DNA of 57,806 bases from Candidatus Sungbacteria bacterium RIFCSPLOWO2_02_FULL_51_17 (GCA_001820785.1 MHQW01000042.1:1-57806); one strand, 5' to 3'. Shown: positions 44,626-52,045, counted from the first letter of the stretch. Program-made: numbers and translations. The notes: generated by a model from the sequence alone, not told the origin.

Positions 44626-44778
44626 TTGGTATGAATTTACATATAATATCCTTCGGACAAGATGGTGTGGCGCATTCTGACCGCACAAAACGGATTTTAG
44701 CATGTTTTCTTCGGAGTTCAATGCGGGTGGCGAGCGGGATGGGCATCATGATGAACCGCTGAAGTAAGTCCTCTTTCT

Positions 44779-44851
44779 GCGTCCATAGCTCAGTTGGTAG
44801 AGCAGCTCCCTTTTAAGGAGACGGTCGCAGGTTCGAATCCTGCTGGACGCA
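44779..44851 (+). tRNA. tRNA-Lys (anticodon UUU)
   Basis: GCGTCCA acceptor, GCTC/GAGC D-stem, loop CTTTTAA, T-arm GCAGGTTCGAATCCTGC. Close to the E. coli tRNA-Lys pattern. Confidence 0.9.
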
Positions 44852-45067
44852 TTACATAAAAGCACCTGGCAATGCGCTCGGTGTTTTTATAGATATCGCT
44901 TCCTATCTTTCTGGGTAACCCAAAGAAGTAATCTACCTGTCTTTTTACAACTTCCTTTTTTGCACCTATTATACTCAAAACTTTCCTTACACCTACAAAA
45001 TCAGTGCAATGATGTTTTAGTTCAAGATTTGTTTTGTTCATACAAAACTCTAACAGAGTATCTTTTG

Positions 45068-45165
45068 GTGGTCTATTCTTGAAATAGTTCGGACGGTTTT
45101 CGCCGCCGCAGGCGGCAAGGTATGCCCCCCGCGAAATTCCGAAATCGCGGCTCCGCCGCGCCGAT
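45068..45165. repeat. Inverted repeat IR-A (98 bp)
   Basis: Exact reverse complement of 46087-46184, verified base by base. Confidence 0.9.
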
Positions 45166-45217
45166 GACAATTTCAAGTTTTTCTTTGGCGGCAAATTCTT
45201 AAAAAATTCTTGGATTA

Positions 45218-46009
45218 TTATGGCCGACACCGATTCATACACTGTTGGAATGACTCAGATTTCAGGAGGTCCACTATATGGCCAATGCCTTCTCTGGACG
45301 CACCATAAGTTTGATAGCAAGCATCCGTACATGTTTGACAGGTGTTATCTACAACAGAACGACACTGAAGATTATCGAGTTCGCAGCCGCTTCCACAAAA
45401 ATATCTGATATTTCCATTATGTTCCTTAATCCTTTCAAATTCTTCTTTGGCGACTACCATGCCCTCAAACATACGCATCGTTTGAGGTTCAGTACTGTCG
45501 TAGAGGTAGGAAGGTATGCTGAAGTATGGTGAAAATTCTACTGGACAAGTTCTTGTCAGAGAGAAAAGTTTTGATTGGTTATCTGCGATAGACGTAGCGG
45601 TACACTGAAAGTTGAAAAAAGCAAGTTGCAACCCCTGTACCCACATAAATCCCAAAATTATTAAAACTCCCAATAGTATTGAAATTGATTTAACAACTTT
45701 ATGACGCTCAATCCCCCAAACAATAATGCCAGCAACAAAAGCGTAAAAAAGTGCCGATATGGCCGTAATCAATCCGAGCGAGTATGGATATGTAAAGTAG
45801 AAAAAGTCGCTAACCCCGATGAGTTCCTCTAAAATTATTTCTTCGAGAAAAAACTTAACCGGATTTGTTAAGGGTCCGAAGCTTCCAAGAACAAGCGATA
45901 TGATCGTAACTACGATAACAAAACCCGCAATACCCAAGCTTACTCTAAGCCACCAGCGAACTTTTTTTACTGGCAATTTACTTTCATTATCAAATATTGG
46001 AGTATCCAT
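45218..46009 (-). CDS. Membrane protein with Cys-rich C-terminal domain (cargo of the element), function unknown
   Basis: 263 aa with three or four TM helices, then about 110 residues containing 12 Cys (CGSGCELDNLQC...CQTCTDAC...CMNRC). AT-rich coding sequence. Confidence 0.6.
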   Translation of the reverse strand: MDTPIFDNESKLPVKKVRWWLRVSLGIAGFVIVVTIISLVLGSFGPLTNPVKFFLEEIILEELIGVSDFFYFTYPYSLGLITAISALFYAFVAGIIVWGIERHKVVKSISILLGVLIILGFMWVQGLQLAFFNFQCTATSIADNQSKLFSLTRTCPVEFSPYFSIPSYLYDSTEPQTMRMFEGMVVAKEEFERIKEHNGNIRYFCGSGCELDNLQCRSVVDNTCQTCTDACYQTYGASREGIGHIVDLLKSESFQQCMNRCRP

Positions 46010-46086
46010 ATGATTAAAAATTTTTCTTTTCCCAAAATTAAAATGCAGTTCGAGCTGATATTTTTGCAGGTTCTTTGGCAGTTTTT

Positions 46087-46184
46087 ATCGGCGCGGCGGA
46101 GCCGCGATTTCGGAATTTCGCGGGGGGCATACCTTGCCGCCTGCGGCGGCGAAAACCGTCCGAACTATTTCAAGAATAGACCAC
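46087..46184. repeat. Inverted repeat IR-A' (98 bp)
   Basis: Reverse complement of 45068-45165. Contains the GC-rich hairpins CCGCGA..TCGCGG and GCCGCC-tgc-GGCGGC. Confidence 0.9.
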
Positions 46185-46280
46185 ATTTTAGAAAAGCGCA
46201 AGGAATTGGAAGCCGCCTCGCTTCGCTCGGCGGTCAATTTGTATTGAATTTTGGGCGAAAAAATCAGTTGGCGATTCTGC
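46181..46280. repeat. Inverted repeat IR-B (100 bp), contiguous with IR-A' through the shared CCAC
   Basis: Reverse complement of 47688-47787 with 2 mismatches. Confidence 0.9.
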
Positions 46281-46314
46281 TTTTGGGAAAAGAAAATTTT
46301 TAAATCAAAACTAT

Positions 46315-48042
46315 ATGAAATACATACTCTATGCAAGAAAATCTACCGAGGACGAGGATCATCAAATTCTCTCGATTGAGGCGCAACTCTTTGAGTTGCG
46401 CCAGTTTGCCGCCAAAGAAAAACTTGAAATTGTCGCTTCCTTCGAGGAAGCAAAAACTGCCAAAGAACCTGGGCGAATTAAATTTGCAGAAATGTTGTCA
46501 TTGATTGAAAGGGGAAAAGCTGACGGAATACTCTCATGGAATCCCGATCGTCTTGCAAGAAATTCTGTGGACGGTGGAAGGATAATTCACATGATTGATT
46601 GCGGCTTGATAAAGTCCCTCAAATTTCCCACTTTCTGGTTTGAGCCAACGCCGCAGGGTTTGTTTATGCTCCAAATTGCTTTTGGCCAATCGAAATACTA
46701 TGTAGATTCTCTGAGAGAAAATGTAACTCGTGGAATGAGGCAAAAAGTGAGAAATGGAGTATGGCCAAGCAAGGCGCCACTCGGCTACCTCAATAATCCA
46801 AAGACGCGAGGAATTGATGTTGATACAGAAAGAGCTCCTAAAGTGAAAAAGATTTTTGAGTTATATGCCACTGGAAACTACAACCTTCGAGAATTAGCAG
46901 AGTGGTGCAAACGAGTAAATCTCAAAAGCAATTTGGGGCGGGGCATCGCTATTTCTCAAATCCATAAGATACTCCAAAATGTTTTCTATATCGGACTTAT
47001 GAAATATAAGGGTGAAACCCACGAAGCAACTCACGAGCCGCTAATTTCAAAGAAACTTTTTGATAAAGTTCGGGAAATAATGCGAGAGAAAGGAAAGCCA
47101 CAAAAAGTGAAGACGCACAATTTTGCTTTTCTTGGACTTATGAAATGTTCTTGCTCGGCGGCAATTACCGCCGAAAAGAAAATCAAACCAAGCGGCAGAG
47201 AATATATTTACTATCGTTGTACCAAAAAGAAAGGGCCGTGCCAAGAAAAGCACTTTTTGCGGCAAGAGGCGTTATATCAACAAATCAAATCTTTTCTTCA
47301 AAAAGTTTCTTTGTCGAGCCACGACACGAAGAAAGTGTTGGCGGAGTTAAACAAAGAAGAGGCCCAAGCAAAAGAGCAGGCCAAAACTACTGTTCAAAAT
47401 CTCAAGGCCGAATTTTCTGAAATCGAGAGGAAGCTCGAAAAATTGCTCGATGTGTATTTAGCCGAAACCATTACTGCCGAAGAATACGCCTCTCGCAAAG
47501 AAAAACTGGTCAAGCAAAAGGTCGGTCTGCAGGAGGAAATCCGAGATTTTGAACAAAGGGGTCTGTCGTGGCTCGAACCCGCTCGTGAGTTTGCTTTATC
47601 ACTTAATCAAGCCGCGAAATTGCTTGAAACCGAAAACAAGACGGAAATGACAACATTTCTTAAAAATATCGGCTTGAACTGCATTTTGCAGAATCGCCAA
47701 CTGATTTTTTCGCCTAAAATTCAATACAAATTGGCCGCCGAGCGAAGCGAGGCGGCTTCCAATTCCTTGCGCTTTTCTAAAATGTGGACCATGGGAGAAT
47801 CGAACTCCCGCATCCCGGATGCAAACCGGGCGCACTGCCACTGTGCTAATGGCCCATGGACTGAATCATACAGCAGGGCACCTCATGCTGTGCGTTGGAA
47901 AACATGCGCATTATATATAGAATGGCAACTTCCCGCAAGCGACGGTGACACATGTTGCCACTTGCTCCCCACCCCAATCCTGCTACACTGTCCAAAGATG
48001 CGTTCGTTGAAAAAGGCCTTGTGCCGCGGAGGGGTGCTATGA
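46315..48042 (+). CDS. Large serine recombinase (resolvase domain, recombinase domain, zinc ribbon, coiled coil)
   Basis: YARKSTEDE catalytic-Ser N-terminus, DRLARN, a Cys4 ribbon (CSCS...YYRCTKKKGPC) and a long coiled coil. The ORF has no stop until 48042, after running through IR-B' and antisense tRNA-Ala, so the functional 3' end is uncertain. Confidence 0.85.
   Translation: MKYILYARKSTEDEDHQILSIEAQLFELRQFAAKEKLEIVASFEEAKTAKEPGRIKFAEMLSLIERGKADGILSWNPDRLARNSVDGGRIIHMIDCGLIKSLKFPTFWFEPTPQGLFMLQIAFGQSKYYVDSLRENVTRGMRQKVRNGVWPSKAPLGYLNNPKTRGIDVDTERAPKVKKIFELYATGNYNLRELAEWCKRVNLKSNLGRGIAISQIHKILQNVFYIGLMKYKGETHEATHEPLISKKLFDKVREIMREKGKPQKVKTHNFAFLGLMKCSCSAAITAEKKIKPSGREYIYYRCTKKKGPCQEKHFLRQEALYQQIKSFLQKVSLSSHDTKKVLAELNKEEAQAKEQAKTTVQNLKAEFSEIERKLEKLLDVYLAETITAEEYASRKEKLVKQKVGLQEEIRDFEQRGLSWLEPAREFALSLNQAAKLLETENKTEMTTFLKNIGLNCILQNRQLIFSPKIQYKLAAERSEAASNSLRFSKMWTMGESNSRIPDANRAHCHCANGPWTESYSRAPHAVRWKTCALYIEWQLPASDGDTCCHLLPTPILLHCPKMRSLKKALCRGGVL
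47688..47787. repeat. Inverted repeat IR-B' (100 bp), within the recombinase 3' end and overlapping tRNA-Ala by 3 nt
   Basis: See IR-B. It ends in GTGG (47784-47787). Confidence 0.9.
47785..47855 (-). tRNA. tRNA-Ala (anticodon UGC)
   Basis: Minus-strand GGGCCAT acceptor with the G3:U70 alanine identity pair, anticodon loop TTTGCAT, T-arm GGGAG-TTCGATT-CTCCC. 71 nt, no encoded CCA. Confidence 0.85.
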
Positions 48043-49577: not shown

Positions 49578-50894
49578 ATGGCGCAGTTTCAACAGCAGGA
49601 AATAACCGCCGAAGAGCTCGTACGCGTACTCATCCAACAGGCGGTCCGCGAACGCGTCTCTGATATTCACATTGAGCCCCTAGTAGACAGGATGTGTCTT
49701 CGGTTTCGCGTGGACGGAAATCTTCAGGACCGCGGTACCCGGCCCTTGTATGAGTTGGAGCCGATCCTTACCCGGATGAAGGTTCTTTCTAATCTTGATA
49801 TCACGAGTCATGCAACGCCGCAGGAGGGGCATTTTGAGATGACCGTTGACGTGGGCGGCGGGCAAGCGGCCGCAGAGGCCGAGAGAGCCGAGCGCTCCGC
49901 AGGCAACCTTACCGATAAGCTCTCTAGTTTGTTTTCCAAAGGAGGCGGTAATTCTCTCCCGCCGGAGCCGGGTGTGCCGTTACAGGCCCAGCAAAGCACG
50001 AAACGCTTGATAGACGTGCGTCTTTCAATTTTTCCGACGATACATGGCGAGACCGCGGTTCTGCGTCTTTTGAATCGCGCGGAGATGTTCATGTCCATAA
50101 AAGATCTCGGATTTGATGCGGCTGAGTTTTCAATTGTAAAAAAGATCATCAATAAGATCTATGGCATGGTGCTTGTAACGGGGCCCTCTGGCGCCGGAAA
50201 AACAACGACCCTCTACTCAATTTTGCGGGAAATAAAAAGCAAGGAGAAAAATATCATCACGCTTGAAGACCCGGTTGAGTTCCATATTGACGATATTCGC
50301 CAAAGCCAGATGAATCCCGACCAGGGGTATACGTTTGCGATCGGCATGCGCTCAATTTTGCGGCAAGATCCTGACGTGGTAATGATCGGCGAAATTCGGG
50401 ATCCGGAAACGGCAGAGCAGGCGGTGCGGGCATCGCTTACCGGGCGCATCGTTTTTTCCACGGTGCATTCTAACACCACTATCGGCACGATCGCGCGTCT
50501 TACCGATATGAACGTTGAACGAAGCTTGATCGCATATGCCATAAATGGCGTCATCGCCCAGCGTTTGGTGCGAAAAATGTGCCAGCAATGCAAAACGACC
50601 TACCAACCGGAGGCGGAATACATGAGTTATTTCGGGCTCACGGATGGACAACAGACATTTTTGAAAGGAAAAGGATGCTCTGCGTGCGACAATACCGGAT
50701 ATATTGGGCGCGTCGGCATCTTTGAAGTTTTTGAGTTTGATGACACCATTCGCTCCCTCATTATTGATAAGGCGCCGATGTTTGCGATCCAGGAGTACGC
50801 GGAAAAAAACGGCATGAAAACGCTGAAGCAAGGCGCAATTGAAAAGGTCTTGGCCGGAATAACTACACTTGAAGAGGCTGCCCGAACAGTATGA
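49578..50894 (+). CDS. GspE/PilB-family secretion ATPase (type II secretion / type IV pilus assembly)
   Basis: Walker A GPSGAGKTTT, Asp and His boxes, and the tetracysteine motif CQQC...CSAC. It has an Ala/Gly/Ser-rich insertion of about 50 aa ahead of the IDVRLS block. Confidence 0.85.
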   Translation: MAQFQQQEITAEELVRVLIQQAVRERVSDIHIEPLVDRMCLRFRVDGNLQDRGTRPLYELEPILTRMKVLSNLDITSHATPQEGHFEMTVDVGGGQAAAEAERAERSAGNLTDKLSSLFSKGGGNSLPPEPGVPLQAQQSTKRLIDVRLSIFPTIHGETAVLRLLNRAEMFMSIKDLGFDAAEFSIVKKIINKIYGMVLVTGPSGAGKTTTLYSILREIKSKEKNIITLEDPVEFHIDDIRQSQMNPDQGYTFAIGMRSILRQDPDVVMIGEIRDPETAEQAVRASLTGRIVFSTVHSNTTIGTIARLTDMNVERSLIAYAINGVIAQRLVRKMCQQCKTTYQPEAEYMSYFGLTDGQQTFLKGKGCSACDNTGYIGRVGIFEVFEFDDTIRSLIIDKAPMFAIQEYAEKNGMKTLKQGAIEKVLAGITTLEEAARTV

Positions 50895-50901
50895 TATAAT
50901 A

Positions 50902-50922
50902 TATGGAGGTTGAACCTCCATA
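50902..50922. repeat. REP-like palindrome, copy b (central G)
   Basis: TATGGAGGTT-G-AACCTCCATA, 8 nt after the gspE-like stop. Confidence 0.85.
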
Positions 50923-50939
50923 ATATTAGGGAAATTATT

Positions 50940-50961
50940 AGCGCACAAGCGCTGATTTTTT
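50940..50961 (+). terminator. Putative rho-independent terminator
   Basis: AGCGC-acaa-GCGCT followed by GATTTTTT. Confidence 0.55.
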
Positions 50962-51158
50962 ATCGCCGGCGTATTTGCTGAAGAACATTCGGTACGATTT
51001 GAAAACATTCTTCGCTACATGGCTTATGAAACTGAGTGCTCCACTTTTTGGAATCTCACATGAGTGTGGGAAGGATGATGCTTATAGCAAGTATTTTATG
51101 GCACACGCACCGTGCCCCCTGATGGCTTTTGGGGGTTGCGCTATACAGTATTTCATAC

Positions 51159-51266
51159 ACTCATATATTAGCGATAGCATAAATATGAGGATTTTATTGA
51201 GAACAATCGTTTACTCATATAAATGCGACCGCTGAAATATGAGGAATTATTGAGGACTATTTTGTT
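51159..51266 (+). repeat. Tandem pair of ~54-bp hairpin-containing repeats (copies 1-2)
   Basis: ACTCATAT-N5-GCGAYMGC-N2-AAATATGAGGA...TTATTGAGRAC, with a period of 54 bp. Copy 2 overlaps the stop codon of the adjacent gene. Confidence 0.75.
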
Positions 51267-51813
51267 AGCGGATATGAAAAATTTCTTTGAGATGAAGTTC
51301 GTTGTCAATGGAATGTGCTATGACAAAGCGAATGTGTCGGCGTGCCTGATAAAATTCAATAAGAAAATCTATTTCATTTTTACATTCGTATGGATGCACA
51401 AACACGCTTTTTTGGAGCTCAAAAAAGGAGAGCCGCTTTAGGTGATGCCGAAATGCGTCCCTAATTTTTTTCTGATGCTCCGGAATATCAAAAAGAACGA
51501 TTCGCCACTTCTTGTCCCATTGTTCGGGGCGCGCTATTGTCATTTCATCAAATTTATACGATAAAACACGTCTTCTGCCGGTATCAGTAAGAGTTAACGT
51601 AACTTCTTTCCCGCTACGCTCCTTAACGGTGATGAGACGATTTTCATATAATCCCGCGATAGCCCGCCTTAGATTATAACGGTTGATACTTTGCCACTCC
51701 TTGCCAACCAGGGTAATTATTTTGAAGAAGCTTTTTGGTGATGTTGAAAGGCCGAGCGCTGCGCCACTTGCGAGAAGAATGAGTATTTTATGCTGAATTC
51801 CGCCTATTTTCAT
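51265..51813 (-). CDS. wHTH regulator-like protein with PaaX-C / Cas2-like C-terminal fold
   Basis: 182 aa. N-terminal winged-helix-like region. WRIVLFDIPEHQKKIRDAFRHHLKRLSFFELQKSVFVHP matches the beta-alpha-beta pattern shared by PaaX C-domains and Cas2. Confidence 0.55.
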   Translation of the reverse strand: MKIGGIQHKILILLASGAALGLSTSPKSFFKIITLVGKEWQSINRYNLRRAIAGLYENRLITVKERSGKEVTLTLTDTGRRRVLSYKFDEMTIARPEQWDKKWRIVLFDIPEHQKKIRDAFRHHLKRLSFFELQKSVFVHPYECKNEIDFLIEFYQARRHIRFVIAHSIDNELHLKEIFHIR

Positions 51814-51857
51814 GAAAGTGTATCCAATGGTTAACTAAATGTAGTATATTATATGCT

Positions 51858-51967
51858 ACTTATATTTTAACGATAGCGCAAATGTGAGGGAAATCAGCGA
51901 TGAGATACTAATACTCATATTCTCTCGATCGCGATAATATGAGGGAAAATTGAAGGGATGGGGTGAG
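51858..51967 (+). repeat. Tandem pair of ~55-bp hairpin-containing repeats (copies 3-4), in the promoter region of the wHTH gene
   Basis: ACTTATAT..CGATAGCGCAAATGTGAGGGA and ACTCATAT..CGATCGCGATAATATGAGGGA, in the same orientation as copies 1-2. A minus-strand TATAAT lies at 51848-51853. Confidence 0.7.
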
Positions 51968-52045
51968 ATAGCCCCATTTGTCAGAAGAGGTTTTTGGTGC
52001 GGACTGAGCATGAAACGATGTAGATGTAAAAATGGACACGGCTCT

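Follow-up and report, generated by a model that had tools for sequence, protein, structure and literature searches.

Between a tRNA-Lys and a tRNA-Ala gene of the window (the whole stretch of Candidatus Sungbacteria DNA that we analysed, 57,806 nucleotides) lies a real element that is a variant of the serine-integrase elements. We regard it as probable, with room for doubt, that it is a miniature integrated serine-recombinase element that targets a tRNA 3′ end and carries a second, inverted attP. Judged from the sequences of its relatives, this plan of three sites is the usual build of a large Patescibacteria family whose members each carry a one-gene cassette. We found no published description of this family.

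Sites and genes of the element

The coordinates of the element are collected in Table 1. The first-pass annotation had described an AT-rich block holding only a recombinase and a membrane-protein gene, and the ORF and Pfam content and the GC values agree: GC is 0.37-0.45 within the block versus ~0.50 in the flanks, the genes are a large serine recombinase and one membrane-protein-like ORF, and the two tRNAs were the sole matches of an Rfam scan. The extent given there (44852-47855) holds for the tRNA-flanked block but not for the element itself: the left flank at 44853-45067 (~216 bp) falls outside the left junction. The target gene has CAT at the junction in place of an encoded CCA.

Table 1. 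Features of the element and its surroundings, by position in the window
Feature	Position	Strand	Remarks
tRNA-Lys(UUU)	44778-44852	+	
Element proper	45068-47787		~2.7 kb; integrated, adjoins tRNA-Ala 3′ end
Core 1 (GTGG)	45068-45071	.	crossover region of S1, attL-type
Arm a, outer copy	45072-45165	+	P′ half-site and GC-rich hairpins; with core 98/98 versus S2 copy
FAAK′ box	45166-45195	-	inverted copy of recombinase nt 91-120; 30/30 versus reverse complement of 46405-46434
Cargo gene	45218-46009	-	ORF; 263-aa predicted membrane protein, weak DUF7937 match
Cargo leader	46011-46086	-	copies of recombinase pieces: up′ 46011-46039, recC′ 46040-46065, KTAK′ 46067-46086
S2, full inverted attP	46087-46280	-	rc(a) 46087-46180, core CCAC 46181-46184, rc(b) 46185-46280
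'up' leader of recombinase gene	46281-46314	+	conserved TTTTGGGAAAAGAAAATTTTTAA box, copied before cargo gene
Large serine recombinase, conserved part	46315-47784	+	490 codons; ORF runs on to 48042 in integrated state
FAAK	46405-46434	+	inside recombinase CDS
Covarying hairpin 'pal'	46435-46451	+	inside recombinase CDS
KTAK	46452-46471	+	inside recombinase CDS
Eight nested long-range helices	46488-47660	+	in recombinase CDS; CDS nt 174-188:1332-1346 to 1077-1089:1229-1241
recC box	47662-47687	+	directly 5′ of arm b
Arm b	47688-47783	+	P half-site and GC hairpin; recombinase codons 458-489; with core 98/100 versus S2
Core 3 (GTGG)	47784-47787	.	core of S3, attR-type; overlaps tRNA-Ala positions 71-74
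tRNA-Ala(UGC)	47784-47855	-	target gene, B′ arm

We named the left junction S1, the internal inverted attP S2, and the right junction S3; the GTGG core is common to all three. BLAST reproduced both inverted-repeat pairs reported before: 45068-45165 matches 46087-46184, taken in reverse complement, at every position (98/98, E = 2.6e-47), and 47688-47787 agrees with the reverse complement of 46181-46280 at 98 of 100 positions (E = 1.1e-45), differing at 47715 and 47734. Of the two outer junctions, S1 (flank-GTGG-a) is of the attL type and S3 (b-GTGG-tRNA) of the attR type, so that the geometry proposed for 45068 and 47787 stands, with the support of comparative data. The order b-core-a within S2 is exact, as the annotation had it, and the overlap of core 3 with the tRNA-Ala 3′ end was confirmed as well. 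BLAST found no further copy of the 194-bp unit elsewhere in the 57.8-kb window. One contig ends precisely at core position 46181.

That such repeats arose by faulty assembly or by chance has a practically negligible probability. Contigs often end at the repeats, and one contig end (L094) is palindromic junk, but the repeats are 98-100% identical over ~100 nt (E ~1e-46) and the layout recurs across many studies and assemblers, in 38 genomes in all. An artefact, a concern of the first-pass annotation, was checked and ruled out by this recurrence and by assemblies made with k=141, which is longer than the repeats.

The recombinase ORF, 46315-48042, encodes 575 aa. Its N-terminal part matches the Resolvase domain (PF00239, E = 2.4e-20, residues 4-150) and PDB 3guv (residues 2-152), with a YARKST motif whose Ser10 is invariant across the alignment. 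The Recombinase domain (PF07508) was found at E = 2.1e-15, Zn_ribbon_recom (PF13408) scored 25.1 bits, slightly below the 25.3 cut-off, and residues 213-410 align with the C-terminal domain of the A118 integrase (4kis, residues 75-282; E = 2.6e-6), a homology that takes in its RD-ZD-CC region. At 490+ aa, the protein has the architecture of an integrase and not that of a small invertase of the Hin/Gin type. The element encodes no directionality factor. From its sequence, we have little doubt that this is a serine-integrase element integrating at tRNA genes; the earlier view that a large serine recombinase integrated it at the tRNA-Ala 3′ end is backed by the tRNA junctions of its relatives.

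Arm b had been taken for the final codons of the recombinase. This does not hold: b contains no stop, and the ORF continues through GTGG into antisense tRNA-Ala. Once b-GTGG-a is joined, the frame closes at the far end of a and the product has 522 aa; in this frame, arm a supplies the full-length recombinase with its stop and the ~31 codons before it. Because the stop is found only in the joined sequence, the recombinase gene very likely spans attP. Thus, attP is b-GTGG-a and coincides with the 64 codons that end the full-length gene; integration there removes the natural 31-residue tail and the stop and fuses the ORF to the antisense tRNA. We compared 7235 recombinase homologues: they agree to residue ~490 and diverge after it, either entering antisense tRNA or bearing an IL..VRT.F tail, and in ~35 loci the stop lies at the far end of a or slightly short of it. 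In the contigs that encode a tailed recombinase, the arms joined to b belong to other cassettes and are not the element's own a. Conservation of the tail peptide cannot be told apart from that of the P′ DNA site.

Relatives, targets, and cargo

The comparison set comprised 72 related loci, each from a different Patescibacteria species. A tRNA gene lies exactly at the recombinase 3′ end in 59 of the 72, and 12 isotypes are represented. An inverted copy of b is found upstream of the recombinase in 54/57 loci and extends to the core in 45. The full three-site plan is present in 38/48 loci, each time around one unrelated cargo gene, and a and a′ are identical at a median of 99% of positions. Independent assemblies from many samples gave the same arrangement. 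The first-pass annotation had named an identical arrangement in relatives as evidence against its reading. The shared layout does speak against frequent flipping; it also shows the three-site plan to be a conserved design rather than an accident.

In the relatives, the core shared by S1, S2, and S3 measures 3-8 bp and always contains TG[G/C], or CTC at tRNA-Asn; crossover falls in the antisense TG[G/C], at tRNA positions ~72-74. The family consensus of arm a is cagTATtcTTgAA.TAGTTCGAACG. TCGAAC occupies positions 19-24 in arm a (P′) versus 14-19 in the tRNA arm (B′), an offset of 5 bp. For serine integrases, a shift of the ZD motif by 5 bp between attP and attB, nearer the centre in attB, has been published. 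Only the tRNA side shows the offset; beyond CCA, nothing is conserved in the other half of attB. Recombinases that are 87-92% identical occupy different tRNAs, and L012 shows an empty tRNA-Ala(UGC) site that matches both flanks of L005, where the site is occupied.

The cargo genes of 41 relatives are single genes, mutually unrelated. Cargo varies between loci, closely related recombinases carry differing cargo, and no Rep-like gene is present. Some loci depart from the standard plan. L105 is an array of tRNA-Ile, a methyltransferase cassette, the recombinase, and another cassette that has arms of its own (a2); in L003 cargo modules flank the recombinase on both sides, and L012 and L016 are solo recombinase modules between inverted tRNA ends. 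L012, L016, and L105 contain tRNA(sense)-core-rc(b) junctions, and in L105-L107 b-core is joined to other P′-type arms.

These arrays and solo modules, together with the unrelated single-gene cargo and the differing cargo of closely related recombinases, are what one would expect of a composite of independent modules: a recombinase module (rc(b)...b) and cargo cassettes (a...rc(a) or a...b), each mobilisable, forming an integron-like array at tRNA ends with S2 as the joint. Tandem insertion of circles would, however, leave all cores direct, whereas the S2 core is inverted along with its arms (CCAC on the + strand). Moreover, when we scanned 86 loci for arms in 20-kb windows, the commonest pattern (40/86) was exactly two P′-type arms, i.e. 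one cargo module, and extra arms were rare. We consider the composite doubtful and retain the single element with an internal attP.

Could the sites act as a switch? The first-pass annotation had proposed independent inversion of each half, and a phase-variation switch would have the recombinase flip its own segment, the cargo segment, or both, toggling between the tail-less fusion and the full-length enzyme or switching cargo expression. Two pairs of ~100-bp inverted repeats with a common core are suited to this, and a flip of the recombinase segment would restore the 522-aa gene. The assembled loci nevertheless share one orientation. Not one of the 38 complete species-level loci is flipped, a uniformity that gives free flipping no support. 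Flipped cargo was met only in isolated contigs. Among 22 same-strain contigs with the element, a single one (L091) has the cargo segment inverted between the a repeats; its orientation was perhaps the assembler's choice because the inverted repeat is 98 bp long and the k-mer size of that assembly is not known. L105 and L106 hold the same methyltransferase cassette beside the same recombinase in opposite orientations, but they differ by more than a simple flip because the left arm of L105 is rc(b) adjoining the tRNA. In this strain, neither the 22 element contigs nor two metagenome scans contained an empty site, a circle, or a recombinase-inverted form, and no terminal overlaps indicative of a circle were found among the short contigs examined. 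As the enzyme is also of the large integrase type, not the Hin/Gin type, such a switch is improbable.

The predicted fold of the recombinase gene

Three perfect short inverted repeats were absent from the first-pass annotation: 45166-45195/46405-46434, 46067-46086/46452-46471, and 46040-46065/47662-47687. Each is a copied piece of the recombinase gene (Table 1). Nearly all complete loci have the FAAK′ box beside the outer a, and each time it matches the recombinase of its own locus. In the cargo leader, up′ pairs with 46281-46309, recC′ with 47662-47687, and KTAK′ with 46452-46471, and these pairs are kept across loci. Synonymous variation is the lowest of the whole gene in the FAAK-pal-KTAK stretch (46405-46471), and the pal hairpin covaries (CG/UA 26:26; CG/GC/UA 24:15:12).

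The rest of the gene also appears folded. It contains eight or more covarying long-range helices, whose cells are paired in 86.8% of cases versus 37-48% in slid controls (0/500 shuffles), and its MFE z-score is -4.7 versus +0.8 for a host gene. The outermost stem of the fold is b′:b, with up, FAAK, KTAK, and recC in the loop beside it. Mismatches between the copies of b number 39 GU, 35 AC, and 59 other, and those between the copies of a 13, 9, and 19; they look neutral, which indicates homogenisation at the DNA level. Strain variant L092 has another GC hairpin at the corresponding place in its S2 copy of a.

Perhaps, then, S2 and the long arms serve chiefly structure or regulation and not recombination. 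The pairing rc(b):b would close a fold of the recombinase transcript or of a single DNA strand, a:a′ would do likewise for the cargo, the short copies would pair with the recombinase leader and early CDS and keep translation off, and S2 would look like attP only as a copy of the gene's 3′ end. Fold-back inhibition of the IS10 transposase offers a parallel. The nested helices and pal within the CDS, with b′:b outermost, the MFE z-score, and the L092 hairpin substitution fit this explanation, as do an orientation fixed in all genomes, arms of ~95 nt (~4x an integrase half-site), and the strongest synonymous constraint lying precisely on the copied boxes. Nevertheless, the arm-copy mismatches show no G-U excess, and S2 retains an exact core and contiguous binding half-sites, which pairing alone does not need. 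In addition, the b′ side of S2-type sites has recombined with tRNA ends, and a coordinate check showed that the cross-module pairs are not mutually nested. A chiefly structural S2 is thus unlikely, though it is the most serious of the alternatives. A second, structural or regulatory role beside recombination is a different matter: S2 probably has one because its ~95-nt arms go far beyond an integrase site and b′:b closes a conserved fold of the recombinase gene.

A proposed cycle, known systems, and significance

For the element with an internal attP, we propose the following cycle. Excision by S1 x S3 would yield a ~2.7-kb circle in which two inverted 194-bp attP copies separate the recombinase segment from the cargo segment. 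Integration via the attP copy in the recombinase 3′ end would give the arrangement seen almost everywhere. S2 would stay a recombination-competent attP, its b side being found fused to other tRNA genes, and would store a spare copy of the lost recombinase 3′ end; inversion of the recombinase segment between the b repeats could then rebuild the full-length gene.

The textbook rule is that serine integrases recombine attP with attB and nothing else, and need a directionality factor for excision; S2 is therefore expected to be inert within the element. On balance, we lean slightly toward S2 being an active second attP. That it restores or controls the recombinase through inversion seems to us rather unlikely. 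At the consensus level, neither inversion nor S2-mediated integration is seen in the complete genome loci.

The element resembles the large serine integrases of phages and ICEs (A118/LI, Bxb1, phiC31) in domain set, A118 C-terminal homology, short core, and the 5-bp offset of the distal motif. It differs from them by targeting many tRNA 3′ ends with only the tRNA-side attB half conserved, by an attP inside the recombinase gene and an ever-present second, inverted attP, and by its repeated ~95-nt arms, single cargo gene, size of ~2.7 kb, and lack of a directionality factor. Tn4451/Tn5397 (TnpX/TndX) and SCCmec (CcrAB) excise as circles and reinsert without a separate directionality factor, at GA dinucleotide sites and rlmH, respectively. 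These too rely on large serine recombinases, but they are far larger, use other targets, and have no internal inverted attP. In Hin/Gin/Cin/Pin switches and shufflons, core-sharing inverted repeats likewise bracket a segment beside or containing a serine recombinase gene; the Hin/Gin/Cin/Pin enzymes, however, are small invertases with 26-bp sites and an enhancer/FIS requirement, and both orientations are common, whereas here the enzyme is large and integrase-type and one orientation is fixed.

Tyrosine recombinases provide other parallels. The yeast 2-micron plasmid, which replicates and flips freely, has FRT, the target of the tyrosine recombinase FLP, in 599-bp inverted repeats. Like it, the predicted circle has two long target-bearing inverted repeats and two unique segments, one encoding the recombinase; unlike it, the circle is only predicted, shows no visible replication function, and has one dominant orientation. 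Integrons share the unrelated one-gene cassettes between recombination sites and, in our occasional arrays, the fixed anchor (here a tRNA end), but IntI is a tyrosine recombinase, attC is folded and single-stranded, and the cassettes lack a recombinase, whereas each standard element here has its own serine recombinase and arrays are exceptional. Archaeal tyrosine integrases of the SSV type have the att site in their own gene, which is altered on integration at a tRNA, and this alteration has been proposed to control directionality. Integration splits these 'suicidal' integrases into two inactive halves, and the type has been reported as exclusive to archaea. Here the recombinase is bacterial and of the serine type, it loses only ~31 C-terminal residues, and the element keeps the lost end as an intact inverted copy.

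Tentatively, and against the odds as we see them, all these features may be read jointly: integration alters the enzyme because its gene extends across attP, the inverted attP preserves a spare of the lost gene end and so re-arms the element, reacts with further tRNA sites, and swaps one-gene cassettes, and the recombinase gene is a conserved folded nucleic acid. If this were true, the fold would imply control at the level of RNA or single strands, a layer that we know of in no serine integrase, and cassette exchange would be integron-like. With its bacterial, serine-type enzyme the family would then match the archaeal 'suicidal' integrases, and it would be a self-contained cassette system of ultra-small bacteria.

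Attachment sites and the integrated element

The element (45068-47787) carries three sites around a common GTGG core: a left attL-type junction (S1), an internal, inverted attP (S2) and a right attR-type junction (S3), with arms a and b flanking the core. The inverted-repeat geometry described in the first-pass annotation was borne out: 45068-45165 is identical at 98/98 positions to the reverse complement of 46087-46184 (BLAST E = 2.6e-47), and 47688-47787 matches that of 46181-46280 at 98/100, differing at 47715 and 47734 (E = 1.1e-45). A BLAST search for further copies of the 194-bp S2 unit across the window found none, making it single copy there.

Features of the element and its flanks (rc and primes mark inverted copies)
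Feature	Position	Strand	Remark
tRNA-Lys(UUU)	44778-44852	+	ARAGORN + Rfam
Spacer	44853-45067		216 bp, outside element
Outer arm a	45072-45165		part of S1
FAAK'	45166-45195		adjoins outer a; inverted copy of recombinase nt 91-120
Cargo gene	45218-46009	-	263 aa, membrane-like, DUF7937-like
KTAK', recC', up'	46011-46086		adjoin S2; inverted copies of nt 138-157, the 26 nt before b, and the leader
S2	46087-46280		inverted attP
up	46281-46314		leader
rec ORF	46315-48042		575 aa
FAAK	46405-46434
pal	46435-46451		hairpin GCTTCC-TTCGA-GGAAGC, codons 41-46
KTAK	46452-46471
Long-range helices	46488-47660		CDS nt 174-1346
recC	47662-47687
Arm b	47688-47783		part of S3
tRNA-Ala(UGC)	47784-47855	-	ARAGORN + Rfam

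GC content between the two tRNAs is 0.37-0.45 versus ~0.50 outside, and the block codes for a large serine recombinase (Rec; Resolvase, Recombinase and Zn-ribbon domains) and the cargo protein. The 216 bp separating tRNA-Lys from the left junction are likewise AT-rich (GC ~0.39) and could be a native spacer or an older remnant. Another AT-rich stretch (50800-52000, GC 0.38-0.41), with a PaaX_M-domain ORF and small ORFs, lies downstream of pyrE/T2SSE genes. Rfam returned no known RNA families besides the two tRNAs, and scans for intrinsic terminators in the GC hairpins and for a sigma-70 promoter in S2 gave no signal above chance. Phage origin was rejected, as IMG/VR gave only two partial matches. 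The element sequence corresponds to GenBank MHQE01000023.1 (GCA_001822225.1), and the identical sequence was assembled independently in many samples. An assembly artefact was ruled out because the three-site layout recurs in 38 genomes and because the assemblies of the element sequence include k=141 ones, whose k-mer is longer than the repeat.

The cores shared by S1, S2 and S3 at each locus span 3-8 bp and always contain TG[G/C], the antisense of tRNA positions ~72-74, or CTC at tRNA-Asn. With the core as alignment anchor, the consensus of arm a is cagTATtcTTgAA.TAGTTCGAACG and that of the tRNA arm is GGA.TCGAAC, placed 5 bp nearer the core (TCGAAC at 14-19 versus 19-24 in arm a). Arm b has the consensus ..AGGAAA.g.CAAg, and the non-tRNA flank is conserved at CCA only. 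Judged by the dyad of the GGAAAT(T/A)G motif, the crossover dinucleotide may lie at positions 5-6 (GG in the window, GC in many relatives). A distal motif 5 bp nearer the centre in attB than in attP is a hallmark of serine integrases (Rutherford et al. 2013, PMC3783163). We also found the empty site of a close relative (L012), ...CATTGTCCCGATAGCAAAGG-TGG-ACCCAAGCGGG..., in which the two sequences that the element keeps apart in locus L005, its left flank and tRNA-Ala(UGC), are contiguous. Thus the cores, the 5-bp shift and this empty site support the proposed attL/attR/attP reading well, as does the alignment of Rec residues 213-410 with the C-terminal domain of A118 integrase. We are highly confident that this is a serine-integrase element integrating at tRNA genes.

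For the window, the predicted attB is ...ATGGTCCA-CCA-AAAG, with an encoded CCA end. Near 47780-47790 the empty site would read ...GGTCCA-CCA-AAAG; the integrated tRNA-Ala gene instead reads ...GGTCCAC-ATTTT. The encoded CCA is swapped for CAT, and the tRNA must now rely on CCA addition.

The recombinase gene, its relatives and their cargo

Arm b had been annotated as the last codons of the recombinase. This part of the annotation did not hold: arm b contains no stop and the frame passes through GTGG into antisense tRNA-Ala. When b-GTGG-a is joined, the frame reads ...FSKMW-SILEIVRTVFAAAGGKVCPPRNSEIAAPPRR, with its stop at the distal end of a and a product of 522 aa; in the S1 context of ~35 loci, the stop falls at or shortly before the end of a. 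Thus b-core-a makes up the final 64 codons of the full-length gene, and S2 is an inverted copy of its 3' end. That the rec gene spans attP is in our judgement very probable. Among 7235 homologues (E <= 1e-10), agreement extends to residue ~490, past which they either run into antisense tRNA (...W-T.GESNS, ESNP, DSNL) or have an IL..VRT.F-type tail.

We scanned for relatives with one genome per species, obtaining 577, all Patescibacteria-type MAGs, and fetched 80 loci. Downstream sequence is available for 72 loci, and in 59 of them a tRNA gene begins precisely where the conserved part of the recombinase ends (Leu 21, Arg 10, Ala 9, Val 4, Lys 4, Tyr 3, Asn 2, Met 2 and one each of Gly, Ile, Phe and Gln); several of the other 13 resemble tRNA fragments. 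Recombinases of 87-92% identity are found at different tRNAs. An inverted b copy lies 35-70 bp ahead of the start codon in 54/57 loci with upstream sequence, reaching the core in 45. Of 48 loci whose upstream sequence extends for 1.8 kb or more, 38 have the whole three-site plan, with the other copy of a 0.6-2.7 kb more distant (cargo segment median 912 bp; a:a' identity median 99%). Thus the layout that the first-pass annotation singled out for comparison with relatives is the standard architecture of a family. At six loci (L013, L030, L042, L045, L053, L057), another large serine recombinase gene, divergent in sequence (27-48% identity), is no more than 10 kb away from the element.

Taking the largest ORF from each of 41 cargo segments, we found them mutually unrelated (mean identity 8%); besides the DUF7937-like protein of the window, they include methyltransferases, an NAD(P)H-hydrate dehydratase, AHSA1/START-like, RDD, FAD-oxidoreductase, radical-SAM and PsbP-like proteins. 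What the family carries are thus single-gene cassettes. The cargo gene lies on either strand among loci; the surrounding boxes are fixed. These boxes, inverted copies of pieces of the rec gene and its leader, are present in nearly all loci, each matching the recombinase of its own locus. Their order is a circular permutation of the rec gene, opened at the 17-nt pal hairpin between FAAK and KTAK: the rec module has the b arms at the recC/up joint and a closed hairpin at FAAK/KTAK, and the cargo module is its reciprocal, with the a arms at FAAK'/KTAK' and a closed recC'/up' joint. We found no mechanism that accounts for this pattern. By sequence, the FAAK box (CTTGAAATTGTC) and the recC box (GCTCGAAC) resemble arm motifs. 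The string CAAAGAA(A)C occurs six times in the element, four times inside the rec gene (once inverted) and twice, inverted, in FAAK'/KTAK'; the sites include 47048-47063, 47298-47313, 46405-46434 and 46452-46471. It could be a protein-binding site as well as a pairing element.

Orientation and rearranged loci

The two halves had been proposed to invert independently. We found the cargo protein of the window's strain on 22 contigs, of which 21 agree with the window. On the remaining one (L091, JGI 3300002529), the stretch bounded by the a repeats (45166-46086) is precisely inverted, with 100% identity, a flip that could be real or an arbitrary assembler choice given the 98-bp repeat. All complete genome loci are oriented alike, with rec reading into the tRNA, FAAK' by the outer a and KTAK' by S2. 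If real, the L091 flip would be an inversion of the cargo half; the uniform orientation of complete loci speaks against frequent flipping.

A k=141 contig (L002) begins exactly at core position 46181, and its partner from the same sample (L088) ends at 46299. The empty site was absent among the 22 contigs with the flanking Ddl protein, and the cargo-protein look-up for the window's strain returned occupied sites only. An exact flank pattern had no match in the JGI contig collection, from which the strain is evidently absent. The predicted junctions are ...GAGTATCTTTTG-GTGG-ACCATGGGAG... for the empty site, recC-b-GTGG-a-GACAATTTC for the circle and recC-b-GTGG-a-AAAAACTGCC for a flipped rec segment. 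Support for current activity of the element is thin. One contig end (L094:1-210) is homopolymer-rich palindromic junk folded onto arm b, an assembly or sequencing artefact and no junction. In a strain variant (L092:100-260, window 46120-46160), the S2 copy of a has a different GC-rich hairpin and the outer copy is as in the window.

Among relatives, L012:9799-11600 and L016:9123-10835 hold rec modules without cargo between inverted tRNA-Ala(CGC) sequences: on one side a complete sense tRNA meets rc(b) at the core, and on the other b is linked to an antisense 3' tRNA fragment. Recombination of the internal attP with a further tRNA site would be expected to yield this arrangement. On a k=141 contig (L105:161-4143), a cassette array lies directly downstream of tRNA-Ile. 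Its left part reads tRNA-Ile(sense)-CCAC-rc(b)-up'-methyltransferase(+)-FAAK'-rc(a)-CCAC, followed by rc(b)-up-rec-b-GTGG-a2-cargo2(-)-rc(a2). L106:1-2813, from another sample, follows the standard divergent layout: its recombinase is identical in protein sequence to that of L105, its methyltransferase gene is the same (99.8%), b-GTGG-a forms its left end, and b-GTGG-a2 comes after the recombinase; one cassette thus appears in two orientations and arm contexts. In L107 and L108, the b-core is joined to another arm. Taken together, these loci, in which the b-core half is linked to tRNAs in either orientation and to several different P'-type arms, are evidence that S2-type sites do recombine. 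Short contigs encoding tailed recombinases were rejected as circles, as their joints lead to other cassettes. Such rearranged loci are exceptions: 20-kb windows most often hold two P'-type arms (40/86 scanned loci). This count and the lack of a second unit in the window also rule out a high-copy dispersed repeat.

Fold, mechanism and significance

Synonymous-site variation in the rec gene is lowest at FAAKEKLEI (0.17-0.35 bits; mean 1.16, SD 0.30) and at recC. The pal hairpin sits between the gene's two most nucleotide-conserved stretches and shows clear compensatory changes across 57 relatives. Downstream of KTAK, the CDS holds eight conserved long-range helices of 11-16 bp each, properly nested. 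Their cells pair in 86.8% of cases (57 sequences) versus 37-48% with slid partners, and both double-sided changes (189 versus 62 +/- 9.6) and the covariation score (0.131 versus 0.086) exceed those of shuffles (0/500 as high in each case). The window CDS folds at -430.5 kcal/mol versus -385 +/- 9.6 for shuffles (z = -4.7; host gene z = +0.8). In this fold b':b would be the outermost stem, with up, FAAK, pal, KTAK and recC in the loop directly inside. G-U pairs are in mild excess over A-C pairs (315 versus 230), so that the folded strand may be either RNA or single-stranded DNA. Selection on RNA pairing as the cause of arm identity gains no support from the mismatches between the two copies of each arm, whose spectrum looks neutral; the likeness of the arms is thus maintained at the DNA level. 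Given this fold and the length of the arms, S2 probably also has a structural or regulatory role.

These comparisons show a serine-integrase element integrated at a tRNA 3' end, with attP within the rec gene and a second, inverted attP fixed in its design. The free form would be a ~2.7-kb circle bearing attP twice, in inverted orientation. For the window, we rejected a tandem insertion of two circles whose attP sites are palindromic, because the S2 core is inverted (CCAC), not direct; the inverted core also argues against a cointegrate of two circles, unless the crossover dinucleotide is palindromic. Integration of the single circle through the attP copy in the rec 3' end would give the observed state, with the natural enzyme tail swapped for read-through sequence. 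Archaeal 'suicidal' tyrosine integrases, described as exclusive to archaea (review, PMC8371274), offer a parallel in that integration alters the enzyme's own gene.

S2 would stay usable as attP, and we lean slightly towards its being an active second attP. It also holds the sole other copy of the lost gene end, from which a flip between the b repeats would restore the full-length gene. Such re-arming of Rec by inversion seems doubtful to us. The dominance of one orientation could mean that the observed state is the stable one; the alternative orientation would put the full-length gene immediately behind the tRNA promoter.

We did not find the family described in the literature on serine recombinases in Patescibacteria/CPR/Parcubacteria, with tRNA targets or with inverted or double attP. 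In concept, the element comes closest to ordinary serine integrases, SSV-type integrases, the 2-micron plasmid, integrons and engineered cassette exchange with inverted attP pairs; each of these, save the serine-integrase family, has at least one defining feature that it lacks. It is a member of that family with a three-site design that we did not find described.

Serine integrases are valued for genome engineering because of their simple sites and one-way reaction, and how very small elements exit without a directionality factor is an open question. The family offers a testable answer, with an enzyme C-terminus rewritten by integration and a second site to probe. Its near-universal target, the tRNA T-arm and acceptor end, has practical appeal as a portable landing site, and with its nested covarying helices the protein-coding rec gene offers an unusually clear example of dual coding, open to structure probing. 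Routes of horizontal gene transfer in Patescibacteria are poorly known; with a relative in more than 570 species-level genomes, this family appears to be a major means by which single genes move among them.
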